Source: Escherichia phage vB_EcoM_G4507 | Length of the DNA stretch: 64,000 nt | Sequence record: NC_054919.1 | Direction: 5' to 3' (one strand) | Shown: positions 5,355 to 40,268 of the stretch, piece after piece | Layout: each line of letters begins with the position of its first letter | Numbering within the stretch: the first letter of the stretch is position 1 | Notes under the pieces: model-generated | What the model was told of the DNA's origin: nothing | What the model saw: the letters and a program-made list of their open reading frames with translations, nothing else | Databases searched by the model: none | Position numbers and translations under genes: made by a program

Positions 5355-5779
5355 TGCTTCTGATCCCTGAAACTCATGAATTAGTTCTCGAGAATGTCGA
5401 AGCACTTATTCCTGAAGCACAGGGTCGCTTTGACGAATTGTCTTCTGCTTTAAATAAAGACGATATAAATACAATTGTCGAGAATATGCTTGATGATGAA
5501 ACTGATTTAGCGGTTGCATTAGCTTCTATTAATGAAAATATGCCGTTAAATGAATTTATCGTTAAACATGTTTCTGCCCGTGGTGAAATTACTCGCACTA
5601 AAGATCGCAAAACCCGCGAACGTAATGCATTTCAAACTACCGGGTTGTCTAAAGCAAAACGTAGACAAATTGCTCGTAAAGCTACCAAAACGAAGATTGC
5701 CAATCCAGCAGGTCAATCTCGTGCTCAGCGTAAGCGTAAAAAAGCTCTTAAACGCCGTAAAGCATTAGGATTAAGCTAA
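5354..5779 (+). CDS. 68: prohead core protein gp68
   Basis: 141-aa ORF translationally coupled to gene 67; basic C-terminus; synteny. Confidence 0.85.
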
Positions 5780-6417
5780 TGAATGAACCCCAATTACTAA
5801 TTGAAACTTGGGGTCAACCTGGCGAAATTATTGATGGCGTACCAATGCTTGAATCTCATGATGGAAAAGACTTAGGTTTAAAACCGGGTTTATACATCGA
5901 AGGAATATTCATGCAAGCGGAAGTCGTCAATAGAAATAAACGTCTTTATCCAAAACGTATATTAGAAAAAGCGGTAAAAGACTATATTAATGAGCAAGTT
6001 TTAACTAAACAAGCTCTCGGAGAATTAAATCATCCTCCACGCGCTAATGTTGACCCGATGCAAGCCGCTATCATTATAGAAGATATGTGGTGGAAAGGAA
6101 ATGACGTATACGGACGAGCTCGTGTTATTGAAGGTGACCACGGTCCTGGAGATAAATTAGCAGCTAATATTCGTGCCGGATGGATTCCAGGAGTTTCTTC
6201 TCGTGGATTAGGTTCATTGACTGACACAAATAAAGGTTATCGTATCGTAAACGAAGGATTCAAATTAACTGTAGGTGTTGATGCAGTATGGGGTCCAAGT
6301 GCTCCAGATGCATGGGTAACTCCTAAGGAAATTACCGAATCACAGACGGCGGAAGCCGATACAAGTGCCGATGACGCCTATATGGCTCTCGCAGAGGCCA
6401 TGAAAAAAGCGTTATAA
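5779..6417 (+). CDS. 21: prohead core protease gp21
   Basis: 212-aa [37 protein letters not shown]...; length and position match T4 gp21 as recalled. Confidence 0.92.
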   Translation: MNEPQLLIETWGQPGEIIDGVPMLESHDGKDLGLKPGLYIEGIFMQAEVVNRNKRLYPKRILEKAVKDYINEQVLTKQALGELNHPPRANVDPMQAAIIIEDMWWKGNDVYGRARVIEGDHGPGDKLAANIRAGWIPGVSSRGLGSLTDTNKGYRIVNEGFKLTVGVDAVWGPSAPDAWVTPKEITESQTAEADTSADDAYMALAEAMKKAL

Positions 6418-6420
6418 ATA
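6413..6420 (+). promoter_or_regulatory. late promoter TATAAATA for gene 22, overlapping the gene 21 stop codon
   Basis: TATAAATA spans the TAA stop of gene 21, 28 nt upstream of the gene 22 ATG. Confidence 0.5.
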
Positions 6421-6447
6421 TTATTATCTAAACAACAGGACTACAAA

Positions 6448-7257
6448 ATGCTTAAAGAACAACTGATTGCCGAAGCGCAGAAAATTGATGCTTCCGTTGC
6501 TCTTGATAGTATTTTCGAATCAGTTAATATTTCTCCGGAAGCAAAAGAAACTTTCGGCACTGTATTCGAAGCTACCGTCAAGCAGCACGCCGTTAAATTA
6601 GCTGAATCTCATATCGCTAAAATTGCTGAAAAAGCAGAAGAAGAAGTAGAAAAAAATAAAGAAGAAGCAGAAGAAAAAGCTGAGAAGAAAATCGCTGAGC
6701 AAGCTTCTAAATTCCTTGACCATCTTGCAAAAGAATGGCTCACTGAAAATAAATTAGCAGTAGATAAAGGTATCAAAGCCGAACTGTTTGAATCCATGCT
6801 TGGTGGATTGAAAGAGCTCTTCGTTGAACACAACGTTGTTGTTCCAGAAGAATCAGTTGATGTTGTAGCTGAAATGGAAGAAGAACTGCAAGAACATAAA
6901 GAAGAATCAGCTCGTCTGTTCGAAGAACTCAATAAGCGTGACGCATATATCAATTATGTGCAGCGTGAAGTGGCATTGAGCGAAAGTACTAAAGATCTGA
7001 CTGAGTCTCAAAAAGAAAAAGTCTCTGCTCTGGTCGAAGGTATGGATTATTCAGATGCATTCTCAAGTAAATTGAGTGCAATCGTAGAAATGGTGAAGAA
7101 ATCTAATAAAGATGAAAGCACTATTACTGAGAGTATAAATACTCCTGATACTGAAGCAGCCGGACTGAATTTCGTCACTGAAGCTGTAGAAGATAAATCT
7201 GCACAAGGTGCAGAAGATATTGTAAGTGTATATGCGAAAGTCGCATCTCGTTTCTAA
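6448..7257 (+). CDS. 22: prohead core scaffold protein gp22
   Basis: 269-aa highly charged, coiled-coil-like ORF (AEKAEEEVEKNKEEAEEKAEKK); synteny. Confidence 0.9.
   Translation: MLKEQLIAEAQKIDASVALDSIFESVNISPEAKETFGTVFEATVKQHAVKLAESHIAKIAEKAEEEVEKNKEEAEEKAEKKIAEQASKFLDHLAKEWLTENKLAVDKGIKAELFESMLGGLKELFVEHNVVVPEESVDVVAEMEEELQEHKEESARLFEELNKRDAYINYVQREVALSESTKDLTESQKEKVSALVEGMDYSDAFSSKLSAIVEMVKKSNKDESTITESINTPDTEAAGLNFVTEAVEDKSAQGAEDIVSVYAKVASRF
7134..7141 (+). promoter_or_regulatory. late promoter TATAAATA for gene 23, inside the 3' end of gene 22
   Basis: TATAAATA within the gene 22 coding sequence about 135 nt upstream of the gene 23 ATG. Confidence 0.5.
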
Positions 7258-22574: not shown

Positions 22575-23669
22575 ATGGCAATTGTTAAAGAAATAACTGC
22601 TGATTTAATTAAAAAGTCCGGTGAGAAAATTTCAGCCGGACAGAGTACTAAATCAGAAGTAGCAACTAAAACATACACTGCCCAGTTTCCAACTGGGCGT
22701 GCTAGTGGTAATGACACTACAGGGGACTTCCAGGTAACAGATCTATATAAGAATGGATTATTATTTACTGCATACAATATGTCATCTAGGGATTCTGGAA
22801 GTCTTAGAACGATGAGATCTAACTACTCTTCTTCATCTTCGAGTATTTTACGTACAGCCAGAAACACTATCAGTAATACAGTATCAAAACTATCAAATGG
22901 ACTAATATCAGATAATAATTCAGGAACAATAAGTAAAGTTCCTGTTGCAAATATTCTTTTACCTAGATCTAAATCTGACGTCGATACGTCATCACATAGA
23001 TTTAATGATGTTCAAGATAGTCTTATTACAAAAGGTGGAGGTACTGCTACTGGTGTGCTAAGCAATATGGCTTCAACCGCAGTATTTGGAGCGCTGGAAA
23101 GTATAACACAAGGTATAATGGCTGATAATAATGAACAGATTTATACGACAGCCAGAAGCATGTACGGCGGTGCTGAAAATAGAACTAAAGTGTTCACTTG
23201 GGATTTGACTCCGCGCTCAACAGAAGATTTAATGGCTATTATTAATATCTATCAGTATTTTAACTATTTTTCTTACGGTGAAACTGGTAAATCTCAATAT
23301 GCTGCTGAAATAAAAGGATATCTAGATGAGTGGTACCGTTCTACTTTTATTGAGCCGTTAACTCCAGAAGATGCAGTTAAAAATAAGACGTTATTTGAGA
23401 AAATGACATCGAGTTTAACTAACGTTCTTGTAGTTTCAAACCCGACAATTTGGATGGTGAAAAACTTTGGTGCAACATCTAAGTTTGATGGAAAAACGGA
23501 AATATTCGGTCCATGTCAAATCCAGAGTATCAGATTTGATAAAACACCTAATGGTAACTTTAACGGATTAGCTATTGCTCCAAATCTCCCTAGTACATTT
23601 ACTCTCGAGATTACTATGAGAGAAATTATCACGTTAAACCGTGCTTCTTTATATGCGGGGACTTTTTAA
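22575..23669 (+). CDS. 48: baseplate tail-tube junction protein gp48
   Basis: 364-aa ORF; synteny. Confidence 0.92.
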   Translation: MAIVKEITADLIKKSGEKISAGQSTKSEVATKTYTAQFPTGRASGNDTTGDFQVTDLYKNGLLFTAYNMSSRDSGSLRTMRSNYSSSSSSILRTARNTISNTVSKLSNGLISDNNSGTISKVPVANILLPRSKSDVDTSSHRFNDVQDSLITKGGGTATGVLSNMASTAVFGALESITQGIMADNNEQIYTTARSMYGGAENRTKVFTWDLTPRSTEDLMAIINIYQYFNYFSYGETGKSQYAAEIKGYLDEWYRSTFIEPLTPEDAVKNKTLFEKMTSSLTNVLVVSNPTIWMVKNFGATSKFDGKTEIFGPCQIQSIRFDKTPNGNFNGLAIAPNLPSTFTLEITMREIITLNRASLYAGTF

Positions 23670-24634
23670 TGTATTCTTTAGAGGAATTTAATAATCAAGC
23701 AATAAACGCAGATTTCCAACGTAATAATATGTTCAGCTGTGTTTTTGCTACAACTCCATCAACTAAAAGCTCTTCGTTGATAAGTTCAATTAGCAACTTT
23801 TCTTATAATAACTTGGGCCTAAATTCAGATTGGTTAGGATTAACTCAAGGCGATATTAATCAGGGAATTACTACGCTAATTACAGCTGGCACACAAAAAC
23901 TGATAAGAAAATCAGGGGTTAGTAAATATCTTATTGGTGCCATGAGTCAACGTACAGTTCAAAGTTTATTAGGCTCATTTACAGTTGGTACATATTTAAT
24001 TGACTTCTTTAACATGGCATATAACTCATCTGGATTGATGATATACTCTGTAAAAATGCCAGAGAATAGATTATCCTATGAAACTGACTGGAACTATAAT
24101 TCTCCTAATATTCGTATAACTGGGAGAGAATTAGACCCTTTGGTTATTTCATTCAGAATGGATTCAGAAGCTTGTAACTATCGTGCAATGCAAGACTGGG
24201 TTAACGCTGTTCAAGACCCAGTAACTGGATTGCGTGCTTTGCCGCAAGATGTCGAGGCTGATATTCAGGTTAATCTTCATTCTCGCAATGGATTACCACA
24301 TACTGCGGTGATGTTCACTGGATGCATTCCAGTGTCCGTAAGCGCTCCTGAGTTATCATATGATGGAGATAACCAAATAACTACATTTGATGTTACTTTT
24401 GCGTATAGAGTCATGCAGGCTGGAGCAGTTGATAGACAAGCTGCGCTTGAATGGCTTGAATCTGCTGCTATAAATGGTATTCAAAGCGTTCTCGGAAATA
24501 GTGGAGGTGTCACTGGACTATCTAATTCGCTTTCACGACTTAGTAGATTAGGGGGAACTGCAGGAAGCATTTCAAATATTAACACTATGACAGGAATTGT
24601 CAATTCGCAAAGTAAAATATTAGGAGCAATATAA
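23669..24634 (+). CDS. 54: baseplate tail-tube initiator gp54
   Basis: 321-aa ORF coupled to gene 48; synteny. Confidence 0.92.
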   Translation: MYSLEEFNNQAINADFQRNNMFSCVFATTPSTKSSSLISSISNFSYNNLGLNSDWLGLTQGDINQGITTLITAGTQKLIRKSGVSKYLIGAMSQRTVQSLLGSFTVGTYLIDFFNMAYNSSGLMIYSVKMPENRLSYETDWNYNSPNIRITGRELDPLVISFRMDSEACNYRAMQDWVNAVQDPVTGLRALPQDVEADIQVNLHSRNGLPHTAVMFTGCIPVSVSAPELSYDGDNQITTFDVTFAYRVMQAGAVDRQAALEWLESAAINGIQSVLGNSGGVTGLSNSLSRLSRLGGTAGSISNINTMTGIVNSQSKILGAI

Positions 24635-24636
24635 CA

Positions 24637-24658
24637 ATGGGGACCTTTCGGTCCCCAT
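24637..24658. terminator. bidirectional hairpin AUGGGGACC-UUUC-GGUCCCCAU between gene 54 and the convergent 96-aa ORF
   Basis: 9-bp perfect stem between two convergent stop codons. Confidence 0.6.
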
Positions 24659-24662
24659 ATTT

Positions 24663-24953
24663 TTATTTACGGAATGAAATGAAAGCAGCAACTGAAGCAA
24701 CTAAACTGTCTTCAATATAAACTTCAATTTTTACCGGAGCTTCTGACTCAAATTTACCTGTTACTACACCCTGAAAAATACTTTCAGTCTGTTCTGGCTT
24801 TGAAAAATTTTCAGAAGGAAAAATTCCGAACTTTTTATCTGTTCCAAAAATTTTGATAAATTCATCGTAAACTGCTTCATTAAAAGCATTATCAGCAGGA
24901 ATAACGCCTTCAACTACAAGTTCTTGACCTAAAAAGCGCAAAGAAGATTTCAT
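24663..24953 (-). CDS. hypothetical 96-aa protein driven by the duplicated early-promoter cassette
   Basis: ORF with GAGGA Shine-Dalgarno 9 nt upstream; GTTTAC-type promoter directly upstream; no recognisable domain. Confidence 0.6.
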   Translation of the reverse strand: MKSSLRFLGQELVVEGVIPADNAFNEAVYDEFIKIFGTDKKFGIFPSENFSKPEQTESIFQGVVTGKFESEAPVKIEVYIEDSLVASVAAFISFRK

Positions 24954-24960
24954 TTTGTGT

Positions 24961-25014
24961 TCCTCATGTTATGTCAGTAAGACTACTATAACACAACACG
25001 AGGGACTTGTAAAC
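24961..25014 (-). promoter_or_regulatory. 54-bp early-promoter plus leader cassette, copy 1
   Basis: Minus strand GTTTACAAGTCCCTCGTGTTGTGTTATAGTAGTCTTACTGACATAACATGAGGA: GTTTAC (-35), TATAGT/TTATAG (-10), GAGGA SD. Matches 40215-40268 at 53 of 54 positions. Confidence 0.6.
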
Positions 25015-27071
25015 TACATCTTGAACTTTTTAGACATTCCGTTGATGTTAACCAAAGAAGCTAAGATTTGAGAAACTTCGTTTTCCTCTTCTTTTGATTC
25101 TTCTACAAGGAATTGATTAAATCCAGCCATTGGACGAACTTCACCAGTTTCCATTAGATGGTCGCCATCATATACTGATTCTTCTAATTGTTCAGAAGGA
25201 GGAACGATTGTACCTTCGATTAGATACTTGTTATAAGCAGTTTCTTTCATAAAGTAAGTACTTACTTTATTAATCTTCAGTAAAATTCCACGTGGTAGAA
25301 TAACTTCAGCTTCTGACGGAAATCCTGATAAATGACCCGGAACGATAACTTTGATTCGCTCAGCTCCTTTAATTACCATACCCACGCTAGTTTCAGCATC
25401 TTCATTAGCATATGTAGAATGACTACCCATATGCATCAAATCTTCTGCATCAACGGAACCTTCTCCTTCACCAGAAAATACTGCGCCGGAATCATCTAGA
25501 GCCATATAGTTTTTACCATGCTCACCGAAGATATTTGGTTTAAGCGATGTGGATACGAAGTTCTTGAAATAGAACATTTTATTTTCAATGTTATGACGCA
25601 AAGTTTTAAAGGTAACTTCTTGTCCACGGTAAAGTGTAGTTCCTGGAGGAAGAACTGAACCTTTAGCGAATGCAGAATCAAGCGTCTCAATATGTTTAAT
25701 AGCTCGTTCCATATATTCTTCACGGGTAGAATCTGGTTTACCCAAAAGGAACGAGTTCATTTCAACATATGAATCTGCACAATAATCTTCAATTACATCA
25801 GATTCAGCTTGAGTTAATCCTTTTGGAGTTACTTCAGTGCTTGCGTATTCATATGCCTGAGCAGCAGATTCATTAATCAATTTATAAATGCCATTCATGA
25901 CAAATTGAATAATAGCTGTCTTTTCATCTGGCGTAGCTTTAGAACCTTTAACCAAATCATTGATAATTTTCTTAATAACATCAAAGCTATTAGAAATATT
26001 AATATCAGCAAGATCGCTTAAAATTTTATCAGTCTTATAATCAAAGAATTCTTTATTCTTTAAATATTCTTGAGAACCTTGATATGTTATATCGCTCTGT
26101 AACTTGATAGATGGATCACGTAAACGTGCATGGGCTAATGCAATATGATTTCGGAAGCTTTCGAGTTCATAATCACTAGATTTAAAACGAGAAGCGCTTC
26201 TCATACCGCCTATAGCTCCTTTGCTGAAGTTTGAACCAATTTGAATAACGCCAGAGTTCATTGGTCCTTCTGCTTTATACACCGGAACTTTAGATTCAAA
26301 CTCTTGATATTTCTTAGCAGCGAAGCTATCACCCTGAAGTGAAGCATCAACAGTAGAATATTGAGCTTGTGCTGCTAATCGACGACTAATTTTAGTTTTC
26401 TGAATAACAGCTTGGTCCGTGCGCTTATCATTTTCTAAAGCAATAGAAGCAGCAACAGCAACAGCTTTAGGAACAGCATTACCTGTTTTAACATCTACAT
26501 AAACATCACCAACCTTTGATTCAACTTTTGTGAATAACTCAGTTGAAATAGGAGGTACACCTGGAATGTCTTCTAAATTGGCATTTTTACGATAAACCAT
26601 AATATATGCGTACTTTTTATCATAATCCCAGATTTCCTTTAAAAGAACATATCGACCTGCTCCTTTAGTACGTACTAAACGGTCAGCAATAACTTGCATT
26701 TGACGAGCAGCGCCATTTGTTTTACTCTTTAGTACGCGGAATAAGCATGCATCAATTTTATACTGTTTCATTGTTTGAAGAGCAGTATCAAAAACAGCGT
26801 TAATGACGCCAATTGGATTTCCACCCAAGTTTCTAAGTTTAACCAGTGATAATTTCTCGTTGACACCTATCATTACGATATGCATCATTTTATCGCCCGG
26901 CTTAACGTTTTTATTTGTATCACCTCCAGAGGTGTATGTACAAAATCTAAATCCAGGAAGCACGCTTTCTTCGCCGGCTTGAATAGCAAAAATTTGAGGT
27001 ATTTTATGCTTAGGATTTAAGTTAACAACCGGCGCCGAAGCGCCGTCAAATAATTCTGTAATAAGTTCCAT
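25014..27071 (-). CDS. Alt-like ADP-ribosyltransferase paralog
   Basis: 685 aa; N-terminus MELITELFDGASAPVVNLNPKHKIPQIF and ART motifs TLYRGQ, FYFKNFVSTSL, SEAEVILPRG align with the adjacent alt gene; ATG 3 nt after the alt stop. Confidence 0.85.
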   Translation of the reverse strand: MELITELFDGASAPVVNLNPKHKIPQIFAIQAGEESVLPGFRFCTYTSGGDTNKNVKPGDKMMHIVMIGVNEKLSLVKLRNLGGNPIGVINAVFDTALQTMKQYKIDACLFRVLKSKTNGAARQMQVIADRLVRTKGAGRYVLLKEIWDYDKKYAYIMVYRKNANLEDIPGVPPISTELFTKVESKVGDVYVDVKTGNAVPKAVAVAASIALENDKRTDQAVIQKTKISRRLAAQAQYSTVDASLQGDSFAAKKYQEFESKVPVYKAEGPMNSGVIQIGSNFSKGAIGGMRSASRFKSSDYELESFRNHIALAHARLRDPSIKLQSDITYQGSQEYLKNKEFFDYKTDKILSDLADINISNSFDVIKKIINDLVKGSKATPDEKTAIIQFVMNGIYKLINESAAQAYEYASTEVTPKGLTQAESDVIEDYCADSYVEMNSFLLGKPDSTREEYMERAIKHIETLDSAFAKGSVLPPGTTLYRGQEVTFKTLRHNIENKMFYFKNFVSTSLKPNIFGEHGKNYMALDDSGAVFSGEGEGSVDAEDLMHMGSHSTYANEDAETSVGMVIKGAERIKVIVPGHLSGFPSEAEVILPRGILLKINKVSTYFMKETAYNKYLIEGTIVPPSEQLEESVYDGDHLMETGEVRPMAGFNQFLVEESKEEENEVSQILASLVNINGMSKKFKM

Positions 27072-27074
27072 GAT

Positions 27075-29126
27075 TTATCCTTGAACGAACTTGTAAGGCA
27101 TGTTTGTAATATCTATGCAAGACGCAATAATTCCAAGAGATGATTCTACTTTCTGTTTAACATTTGATGAAACAAATGATGCAAAGTCAACTCTATCTTC
27201 TATATCACCTGTCATTGTAACTACTTCGCCGGTTTCCATTAAACGGTCACCGTCATAAATTACTGATTCGGTGAGTTCTTCGGTGGTCATAACTTCAGCT
27301 TGAATAAGCTTGTTGTTAGTTTTGACTGTTCCATCATTGTAAGATGCATCAGTTATTTTATTAACTTTGACCATTAATCCACGTGGCAAAATGACTTCCA
27401 TTTCATTTGAAGGCGCTAAACTTCCACCGGGTAAAACAACATTGACTTTATCAGCCCCAGTAATAACCCATCCAATTCCGACTAAATTATCGCTAGAATT
27501 AACAAGCCCTTCATCATTTTTATCGATAGAAATGTTTAGACGCTTTTCATCTGGTAAAACACCAACAGCTGAATCAGTCATCCAAGTACCAAAAATGTTT
27601 GGATATAATGATGTTGATACAAAATTTCTAAAATAAAAAACTCGATTTTTTACCATTGCTTCGTATATTGAAGGTAACATTCGTTGTGAACGATACAAAG
27701 TAATACCTTTTGGTAATCGTTCACCATTTTTAAAGGCTGAATCTAAATTATCAATAGCTTTTTCTATGTCAGATGCTGTCAAAATACTTGTACGCTCATC
27801 TGGATTATATAATCCCAAAAGAGCATTATTTATGTCTACATATCCTGAACCTACGTATTCACGAATTCCGCGTTTTTGTGCTGGTGTGTATTTAGATGAA
27901 TCTTTATTTTCGACTATAGGATGTAATGACCATCCAGCTGTAAGAGCATATCCACGTAATTCTCTTCGAATAATCTTTGTTTTTATTGCATTCCAAGAAT
28001 TTTGTACTAACTCATTTGCAGCATCTTGGTTTAAATGCGAATGTTTGTTAATATTTCTTTCAAACCAAGCACCTTTATATTTTTCTAAAGTATTATCGAC
28101 GATAGAAGCAATAGTTTCTAAAGTTTTTATTGAAGTAATAGATTCTTTTCGTAATTTTTCTAAAGCTTTATTTTTTATTTCTGCATTAATAATGGATTCT
28201 TTATCTTCAGGAATTATAGAAGCTTCTCTGAATGCCATCCCAGCTGTAACACTGCTAAGAGCATTCTCTAGTGCAAATCCTGAAGTAGAAATTACCGTTA
28301 ATTCATTAGAATCAGAAATTAAAGGCGCATCAGCGGGTTTATTTAATTCTGCTGCTGAAGCCTCAAATTTTTGAAACATCGGTGTTTCAAATCTAGAAGA
28401 TTCCAATGACTGACTTTGTGCAATTGCTCTACGGGAAATTTTAACTTTAACGATTACAGCTTGGTCAGAACGTTTATCATTTTCTTGTGCAATAGATGCT
28501 GCAATTGCCTCATTTTTGGTTACTTGAGCTCCGGTATCTTTATTGATATAAACATCACCGACCTTCGATTCAACTTTAGTAAAGAGCTCGGTACTAATTT
28601 CCGGAACTCCTGGAATGTCTTCTAGTGATACATTTTTGCGATGTATAAGAATATATGCATACTTTTTATCATAATCCCAGAGTTCCTTAAGAAGGACGTA
28701 TCTGCCACCTGAACGACTACGGATAAGTCTATCAGCAATAACTTGAATTTGTCGAGCTTGACCAGCGGTTTTAGACTTAAGAATACGAAGCATACAGGCA
28801 TCAATTTTATACTGACGCATTGTTTGCATCGCAACAGTAAAAACTGAATTGATATAATTAATTGGGCTTGGACCAAGACCTTTTAATTTAGCAATTGAAC
28901 CTTTAGCAGTTAATGTAAAAGGAACAATATGCATCATTTTATCGCCCATCTTTAAATCGCGATTAGTATCACCTCCAGATGTATAGGTACATAAACGAAA
29001 GCCTGGTTGTTCAATTGCATCATCAACATGAACTGAAAAAATTTGCGGTATTTTCTTCTTTGGATTTAAGTTTGTAATCGGAAGAGTAGTATCTTCGTCA
29101 AATAATTCTGTAATAAGTTCCATCAT
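27075..29126 (-). CDS. alt: Alt ADP-ribosyltransferase (capsid-packaged, injected)
   Basis: 683 aa; MMELITELFDEDTTLPITNLNPKKKIPQIF...; R-S-ExE motifs ITLYRSQ, FYFRNFVSTSL, NEMEVILPRG; late promoter upstream. Confidence 0.9.
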   Translation of the reverse strand: MMELITELFDEDTTLPITNLNPKKKIPQIFSVHVDDAIEQPGFRLCTYTSGGDTNRDLKMGDKMMHIVPFTLTAKGSIAKLKGLGPSPINYINSVFTVAMQTMRQYKIDACMLRILKSKTAGQARQIQVIADRLIRSRSGGRYVLLKELWDYDKKYAYILIHRKNVSLEDIPGVPEISTELFTKVESKVGDVYINKDTGAQVTKNEAIAASIAQENDKRSDQAVIVKVKISRRAIAQSQSLESSRFETPMFQKFEASAAELNKPADAPLISDSNELTVISTSGFALENALSSVTAGMAFREASIIPEDKESIINAEIKNKALEKLRKESITSIKTLETIASIVDNTLEKYKGAWFERNINKHSHLNQDAANELVQNSWNAIKTKIIRRELRGYALTAGWSLHPIVENKDSSKYTPAQKRGIREYVGSGYVDINNALLGLYNPDERTSILTASDIEKAIDNLDSAFKNGERLPKGITLYRSQRMLPSIYEAMVKNRVFYFRNFVSTSLYPNIFGTWMTDSAVGVLPDEKRLNISIDKNDEGLVNSSDNLVGIGWVITGADKVNVVLPGGSLAPSNEMEVILPRGLMVKVNKITDASYNDGTVKTNNKLIQAEVMTTEELTESVIYDGDRLMETGEVVTMTGDIEDRVDFASFVSSNVKQKVESSLGIIASCIDITNMPYKFVQG

Positions 29127-39363: not shown

Positions 39364-39713
39364 TTAGAAAGGTCCTGGATGTCTTCTGCTAACTTGTTGA
39401 AGGAGTTGTTAATTTGTTTTTCAACCAATCCTGGCTTATGAGCCACCACATCCGCCTTCTTTGCGTCTTTGCGCAGTTTTTCATTTTCACGCTCAATAGC
39501 AGCAATTGCCTCACGATTTTTATTATTCATCGCATCAATATAATTATACTGAATTCGCAAATTATTTAATGCTAAAGCGTTTTCATTGGCTGTTTTTGTA
39601 ATTTCGGTAACTGATGTTTCTAATCTTTCTACCTTATTTTTTAAAATAATAGATGTTCCGCCAAATGCTATTACAAGTAATAGCAATCCAGCTGTAAAAT
39701 TACTTACATGCAT
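39360..39713 (-). CDS. pseT.3: inner-membrane spanin (Rz equivalent)
   Basis: 117 aa; N-terminal transmembrane helix GLLLLVIAFGGTSIIL followed by coiled-coil-prone periplasmic region; coupled to the o-spanin gene. Confidence 0.7.
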   Translation of the reverse strand: MHVSNFTAGLLLLVIAFGGTSIILKNKVERLETSVTEITKTANENALALNNLRIQYNYIDAMNNKNREAIAAIERENEKLRKDAKKADVVAHKPGLVEKQINNSFNKLAEDIQDLSK

Positions 39714-40210
39714 AAAGTTTTAATAACCTCTATAATATCGTCTTGAGAAAGACCGTTAATTAAAATATGATGTTCAGCTGGAGATTTAGAAATTTTAAAG
39801 CATGCCTCAACATCTTCTGCCATATCCGATGCACTACGATTTGGATTACTAATCCCAAGGCGATGTTTTCCCGTCAAAGGATTAACGATGATATAGCATT
39901 TGCAGCTATTGATATGAACATTGGGTTGAGTCTGATTAATGAACACTTCACAATCATACTTAGCGAGTTGATTTTCTAAAAAGACTTTCATCTCTTCAAC
40001 CGCATCAGGAAGCATATCACGGGCTTGCTCAAGACGACGATTTCGATATTCTTTAATGGTCGTTTTCCGCTTGACTTGTTTAGCTAAATCTTTCTTAAGA
40101 TCAGTGATATATCCAACTCGACGATTTCCTTTAAATACAGAAATCCCATCTGTAGTATCACCGTATGCTTCAACGACCATTTCAGTAGTAATACGCTGCA
40201 AATCCATCAT
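39704..40210 (-). CDS. alc: Alc, host transcription unfoldase / terminator on cytosine DNA
   Basis: 168-aa ORF between the spanin genes and rnlA; length and position match T4 alc as recalled; driven by early-promoter cassette copy 2. Confidence 0.8.
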   Translation of the reverse strand: MMDLQRITTEMVVEAYGDTTDGISVFKGNRRVGYITDLKKDLAKQVKRKTTIKEYRNRRLEQARDMLPDAVEEMKVFLENQLAKYDCEVFINQTQPNVHINSCKCYIIVNPLTGKHRLGISNPNRSASDMAEDVEACFKISKSPAEHHILINGLSQDDIIEVIKTLCM

Positions 40211-40214
40211 AAAG

Positions 40215-40268
40215 TCCTCATGTTATGCCAGTAAGACTACTATAACACAACACGAGGGACTTGTAAAC
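40215..40268 (-). promoter_or_regulatory. 54-bp early-promoter plus leader cassette, copy 2 (upstream of alc)
   Basis: Identical to 24961-25014 except one transition; GTTTAC -35 begins 3 nt after the rnlA stop; GAGGA SD 4 nt before the alc ATG. Confidence 0.6.

Follow-up and report, generated by a model that had tools for sequence, protein, structure and literature searches.

What is the short open reading frame (ORF) between the baseplate gene 54 and the alt genes of a T4-like phage, when is it expressed, and what does its product do? We addressed these questions in a window of 64,000 nucleotides from Escherichia phage vB_EcoM_G4507 (NC_054919.1), 'the window' being the whole stretch of DNA that was analyzed. 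In this region, the baseplate and tail genes 29, 48 and 54 lie on the plus strand, and two tandem genes for alt-type ADP-ribosyltransferases lie on the minus strand. The ORF corresponds to alt.-3 of T4, one of the many early genes of that phage that are left without a function decades after its sequencing. The gene has been conserved in around a thousand T4-like phages of enterobacteria. Its promoter is of one of the strongest types, its protein appears within minutes of infection, and escape from the CmdTAC defense was obtained at no other T4 locus. Finding the target of the wild-type protein would add to the map of host takeover and counter-defense.

We are practically certain that the 96-aa ORF is the ortholog of T4 alt.-3 and, at the same time, a single-gene early unit. 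Gene, family, early timing and the one phenotype have all been published before and are not a new discovery. Our best overall explanation goes further, and takes alt.-3 as an immediate-early unit whose product is a host-binding accessory factor; we consider it probable, with considerable room for doubt. The features on which the analysis is based are collected in Table 1.

Table 1. Coordinates of alt.-3, its neighbors and its expression signals (positions in the window, except for the last line)
Feature	Position	Strand	Details
alt.-3 CDS	24663-24953	-	ATG-to-TAA ORF, 96 aa
Gene 54	23669-24634	+	converges on alt.-3
alt paralog next to alt.-3	25014-27071	-	685 aa, intact
Distal alt	27075-29126	-	683 aa, intact; equals T4 Alt (98% identical)
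T4-type early (sigma-70) promoter, predicted	24985-25014	-	GTTTACA, 17-nt spacer, TG extended -10, TATAGT
5' leader	24954-24984	-	short, unstructured; GAGGA ribosome-binding site at 24961-24965
Second copy of the promoter cassette	40215-40268	-	upstream of alc (39704-40210, -)
Bidirectional intrinsic-terminator-like hairpin	24627-24668 (stem-loop 24637-24658)	both	sequence scan and fold
GEC-3S slot genes	5465-6771 of the GEC-3S locus	-	own promoter

Identity, conservation and selection

The protein encoded in the window is 100% identical to T4 Alt.-3 (NP_049808, UniProt P39493), which the T4 record NC_000866 labels as 'conserved hypothetical protein', and the 901 nt around the gene show 100% identity to several Tequatrovirus genomes, e.g. 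that of Escherichia phage vB_EcoM_G4498. Coding sequence, promoter and leader are nearly identical to those of T4: there are four differences in the coding sequence, all of them synonymous (pN = 0, pS = 0.065). In both phages the gene occupies the slot between the alt genes and gene 54. The two differ upstream of it, where the window has the intact 685-aa alt paralog and T4 has just the remnants alt.-1 and alt.-2 as its counterpart. The intact paralog is only 41% identical to T4 Alt.

Regarding protein families, Alt.-3 matches the Pfam entry PF17602 (DUF5498) from end to end, with residues 1-96 on profile positions 1-96 and a score of 215 bits (gathering cut-off 27; E = 1.4e-64), and it also matches PHROG 1739 (1.3e-44). 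Both are function-unknown families, and they were all that our sequence searches for a function returned; there was no match in NCBIfam, PADLOC or the PDB sequences. The original prediction described a product with no recognisable motif. Because DUF5498 was matched at this level, the description has to be narrowed to the absence of a motif of known function.

A tblastn search detected full-length homologs in 835 phage records, with identities from 34 to 100%, and a remote homolog of 92 aa occupies the same slot in 143 Klebsiella-phage records (hhalign probability 94.6%, E = 7e-8). After scanning 1.84 billion representative proteins with HMMER we obtained only 15 clusters, nearly all with proteins of ~95-110 aa and three of them shorter fragments, and no bacterial or distant relatives. 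Hence, the family is confined to enterobacterial T4-like phages. Every homolog-bearing locus that we examined (among others, RB69, VR5, Marfa, Ursula, Kosakonia 305, EnC15, Melville, EcS1 and two metagenomic contigs) has the order ligase, alt.1, alt, alt.-3, followed on the other strand by 54, 48 and 29. Between genera, identity is 34-58% for Alt.-3, 63-86% for gp54 and 32-58% for Alt, that is, Alt.-3 diverges faster than its structural neighbors gp54 and gp48 and at approximately the pace of Alt. The slot itself is variable: Krischvirus GEC-3S carries other genes in place of alt.-3, namely one for a protein of 274 aa in which an ADP-ribosyltransferase exoenzyme domain was recognized (PF03496, 4e-16) and one for a protein of 161 aa with no family match, and in Aeromonas phage 50AhydR13PP the slot is empty, with alt directly abutting gene 54.

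The codon-usage score of alt.-3 is 0.55 bits/codon in frame, equal to that of the neighboring phage genes, versus at most 0.01 in each of the five remaining frames, and dN/dS between genera lies between 0.16 and 0.55, at saturated dS. We checked the locus both for lack of expression and for a non-conserved frame with random codon usage, and found neither. A chance open frame, or a decaying remnant without a function of its own, would agree with a deletion that has no known phenotype under laboratory conditions and with a family that does not extend beyond T4-like phages, but this idea deserves next to no credit given the frame-specific codon usage, the selection on the protein, the confident fold prediction, the conservation across genera of length, N-terminus (MKS), C-terminus (FRK), promoter and ribosome-binding site, and the detection of the T4 protein by proteomics (PMC9697503). 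A spurious ORF is excluded by codon usage, selection, conservation and T4 proteomics, and alt.-3 is shown to be a real gene under purifying selection.

Promoter, duplicated cassette and terminator

The gap between the ATG of alt.-3 and the stop codon of the alt paralog (25014) measures 60 nt and holds the promoter, which matched 10 of the 12 consensus positions in a consensus scan and has the TG extension. The G of its -35 element (GTTTACA) is shared with the TAG stop codon of the paralog. Transcription would start near 24978, judging by the position of these elements. The resulting leader has its GAGGA 7 nt before the ATG and folds no better than shuffled sequences (-2.2 kcal/mol, z = +0.6). 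The same early promoter is found in T4. We also aligned the region for 10 phages belonging to 9 groups, between which the Alt.-3 proteins share no more than 34-58% identity; both GTTTACA and TGAGGA were invariant, and the -10 element was invariant or near-invariant.

Exactly two occurrences of the 30-nt promoter were found in the window, compared to 0 expected. Identity between the two copies spans 54 nt, from the -35 element through the ribosome-binding site, with a single mismatch (24961-25014 versus 40215-40268). The second copy precedes alc, a gene of 168 codons located downstream of RNA ligase 1. T4 also has this duplication, and in Tequatrovirus the matches to the cassette amounted to 789 places spread over 487 records, which means two places in many of those records. 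Besides, sites of the form GTTTAC-N16-18-TAnnnT are found 8 times on the minus strand of the window, compared to 2.4 expected. Six further early-promoter-like sites on this strand (33508, 33899, 36918, 49677, 50654 and 53954) may mark other early transcription units of the region.

On the other side of alt.-3, the hairpin ATGGGGACC-GAAA-GGTCCCCAT has 9 pairs, 6 of them G-C, and a predicted RNA folding energy of -20.7 kcal/mol (z = -4.9). In a scan with a threshold of 5 T in 8, it scored as terminator-like on both strands (2 sites, versus 0.5 expected from shuffles). The tail on the plus strand, ATTTTTATTT, provides a good T-run for gene 54 and overlaps the stop codon of alt.-3, and the one on the minus strand, TGTTATATTG, which would serve alt.-3, is weaker and interrupted, still above the threshold. 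A terminator is annotated at this hairpin in the 100%-identical record NC_054918, and Marfa, Melville, GEC-3S and Roth68 have equivalent hairpins, either annotated or visible. T4 differs in its loop, which reads TTTC on the alt.-3 strand, as opposed to GAAA in the window.

As for the timing, T4 alt.-3 has been classed as early both as protein and as transcript, and so has alc; alt was classed as a late protein with a middle transcript, and gp54 as a late protein, yet the gene 54 transcript was classed as 'early' (PMC9697503, Table S2; Wolfram-Schauerte et al. 2022). From the promoter identical to that of T4 we infer that alt.-3 is also expressed early in the window phage. The original prediction, which gave no strand, placed between gene 54 and alt an early unit that is transcribed independently and is bracketed by a bidirectional terminator and a duplicated early-promoter cassette. 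It agrees with these findings: the gene has a promoter and a terminator of its own, both duplication and hairpin are real, and expression in T4 was measured as early. In our proposed mechanism, the host sigma-70 RNA polymerase would initiate at the strong early promoter of T4 type, beginning at the alt paralog's stop codon, the unstructured leader and GAGGA would allow efficient translation of alt.-3, and transcription would stop at the GC-rich hairpin, which would also terminate the converging late gene 54.

Proposed role of Alt.-3 in the infected host

Alt.-3 is a small acidic protein (96 aa, pI 4.7, net charge -5) with no Cys or Trp, and acidity is common to all its homologs (pI 4.4-5.0). 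Residues E11, E15, F24, F50, G66, E71, F91, F94 and R95 are invariant, and the C-terminus aF[IV]xFRK is conserved. With an alignment of 25 sequences, AlphaFold2 predicted a single compact alpha/beta domain of topology beta-beta-alpha-beta-alpha-beta-beta (pLDDT 95.8, pTM 0.83). The matches to this model in BFVD were only uncharacterized proteins of T4-like phages, down to 19-22% identity, and we found no solved structural relative of the predicted fold. Likewise, Alt.-3 had no sequence match to known anti-defense or defense-associated proteins in PADLOC, NCBIfam and PDB, and no neighbor among them by fold.

The phenotype on record comes from the CmdTAC defense system. All T4 phages that escaped CmdTAC carried a C-terminally extended Alt.-3, of 117 aa after a stop-codon mutation or of 110 aa after a 1-nt deletion (PMC11618068; Vassallo et al. 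2024). The extended protein rescues the toxicity of CmdTA in that it keeps the antitoxin CmdA from being degraded in a ClpP-dependent manner (PMC11618068 and its preprint). Wild-type Alt.-3, on the other hand, neither activates nor inhibits CmdTAC and does not rescue CmdTA toxicity, and T4 with alt.-3 deleted is viable and continues to be restricted by CmdTAC (PMC11618068). In our literature search, alt.-3 was mentioned only in that paper and its preprint. Applied to the window sequence, the same two mutations (a sense mutation of the stop codon and a 1-nt deletion) give predicted proteins of exactly 117 and 110 aa, and the two extension tails were unrelated in sequence, which fits a non-specific effect.

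We propose that Alt.-3 would be an accessory factor, for takeover or counter-defense, that binds a host protein stoichiometrically when the infection is only minutes old. Stoichiometric binding is the most likely mode of action because the protein lacks a catalytic or cofactor signature and diverges as fast as Alt; a binder and not an enzyme is what its size and composition, the only basis for this choice, point to. The accessory character agrees with the divergence between genera, the variable slot and the viable deletion in T4. Altogether, we lean towards Alt.-3 being a binding-type accessory modulator of the host, and we do so with reservations. The extended alleles stabilize CmdA against ClpP-dependent degradation, and for this reason host proteolysis and its labile antitoxins are the likeliest area in which to look for the target, though a target in the ClpP/antitoxin axis is itself a tentative proposal, with the balance leaning clearly against it. 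Since the effect is obtained with either of two unrelated tails and not with the wild type, the ClpP link may be a pure neomorph, e.g. the new unstructured tail of an abundant early protein competing for the protease. The idea that the gene is host-takeover or anti-defense cargo, raised from its position at a module boundary, is plausible in view of the fast evolution, the variable slot and the gain-of-function alleles that defeat CmdTAC, but the wild-type protein is inactive on CmdTAC.

There is a precedent for phage interference with host proteolysis in PinA, the T4 inhibitor of the host Lon protease, which was cited as such by the authors of the CmdTAC study (PMC11618068 and its preprint). 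[quoted passage not shown] Unlike PinA, the anti-protease activity has been demonstrated for mutant forms only. Other points of comparison are Dmd, which acts against RnlA/LsoA, and TifA, which acts against ToxIN; both are small, early, dispensable T4 proteins that counter abortive-infection toxins stoichiometrically, are active as wild type and have the toxin itself, or its RNA, as their direct target. Extended Alt.-3 resembles them in neutralizing a toxin-antitoxin-chaperone system. It differs from them in that its effect is indirect, through a stabilized antitoxin, and in that the wild type is inactive against CmdTAC, and it has no homology to either of them.

A more specific alternative is that wild-type Alt.-3 would have a fold not seen before and would natively shield ClpP-labile proteins. 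In this case, it would stabilize the host antitoxins of some toxin-antitoxin(-chaperone) systems, or block a Clp adaptor or unfoldase, and the conserved C-terminus would set the specificity. We regard this as unlikely. If it were true, the CmdTAC escape alleles would be specificity-broadening variants of an existing counter-defense, and not accidents.

Another alternative, which we hold to be equally improbable, is a functional partnership of Alt.-3 with Alt, the ADP-ribosyltransferase encoded next to it. More precisely, and again with little expectation that it holds, Alt.-3 would be made early to regulate or inhibit the Alt that is injected with the DNA, or to act as its specificity factor. 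The location invites this idea, with alt directly upstream in every alt.-3 locus seen and the promoter starting at the alt stop codon, but gene order is rigid across the whole block and, because of this, the adjacency says little. The two proteins diverge at similar rates, and the slot in Krischvirus holds a protein with the ADP-ribosyltransferase domain PF03496. Nevertheless, Alt was found in 1221 records, compared to 835 plus 143 with an Alt.-3 homolog: Acinetobacter and Aeromonas phages carry Alt and no detectable Alt.-3, among them 50AhydR13PP with its Alt next to gene 54, and in Salmonella phage Melville alt is frameshifted and the alt.-3 next to it is intact. An obligatory coupling of both proteins is weakened by these genomes and loci that have Alt without Alt.-3. 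It could also be argued that the sole phenotype involves CmdTAC, whose toxin is an ADP-ribosyltransferase too, but the escape acts via the stability of CmdA and not on the toxin (PMC11618068).

Slightly further down, at a slim chance, we place the possibility that Alt.-3 belongs to a transcription-takeover set co-regulated with Alc and acts on the host RNA polymerase or on transcription shut-off. The alt.-3 and alc cassettes are identical over their 54 nt but for one base in both the window and T4, and both genes are early as RNA and as protein (PMC9697503). Moreover, the neighbor Alt targets RNA polymerase, according to the annotation of the T4 record. The leaders of alt.-3 and alc were seen to be alike within a genome and different between genera: in VR5 they have ~27 nt in common (ACCTTACACAAACATGAGGAGAACATT), and in RB69 they have ATCAACAACA[T/C]GAGGA in common. 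Likeness within a genome implies concerted evolution or a shared regulatory constraint, so that gene conversion or such a constraint is suggested as the link between the leaders of both genes. Against the co-regulation, the two leaders of Melville are unrelated, with nothing in common, and a common strong promoter may simply be the outcome of gene conversion between short repeats.

Other observations around the promoter and the terminator

In 7 of 12 promoter copies we observed perfect 6-bp inverted repeats, centered on GGA, between the -35 and -10 elements. Six of these copies are alt.-3 promoter spacers, including those of VR5 and Melville, and the seventh is the alc promoter of RB69. The stems have five different sequences (ACCACA, ATCCAC, ACATCC, TATCAC and AACACC), and each repeat has a p of ~0.01-0.03 against shuffles of the spacer. 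The repeat is absent from the cassette of T4 and the window, as well as from Kosakonia 305. A palindrome as a generic feature of T4 early promoters was ruled out, given that the stems in the other GTTTAC promoters of the window have 4 bp or less. At the place where the spacer repeats sit, the promoter of Krischvirus GEC-3S is overlapped by a strong terminator of alt. The inverted repeat may be a weak hairpin at the 3' end of alt, or an operator for a homodimer.

Regarding the hairpin, the T4 reference NC_000866 is missing two G of the stem in comparison with the resequenced T4 GT7, which carries the full stem as in the window. The published mutant lengths of 117 and 110 aa were not reproduced from the NC_000866 sequence, which gave 156 and 116 aa instead. 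As these lengths were reproduced from the window and not from NC_000866, and the stem of GT7 is full, the T4 reference is probably in error at this hairpin.

Finally, we detected a sigma-70-like site on the minus strand at 24576-24603 (TTGACA-16-TAATAT with TG, 10/12 matches). It is antisense within the 3' end of gene 54, just past the alt.-3 terminator. As mentioned, the T4 gene 54 transcript was classed as 'early' and its protein as late (PMC9697503); early antisense transcription or read-through across gene 54 is possible.
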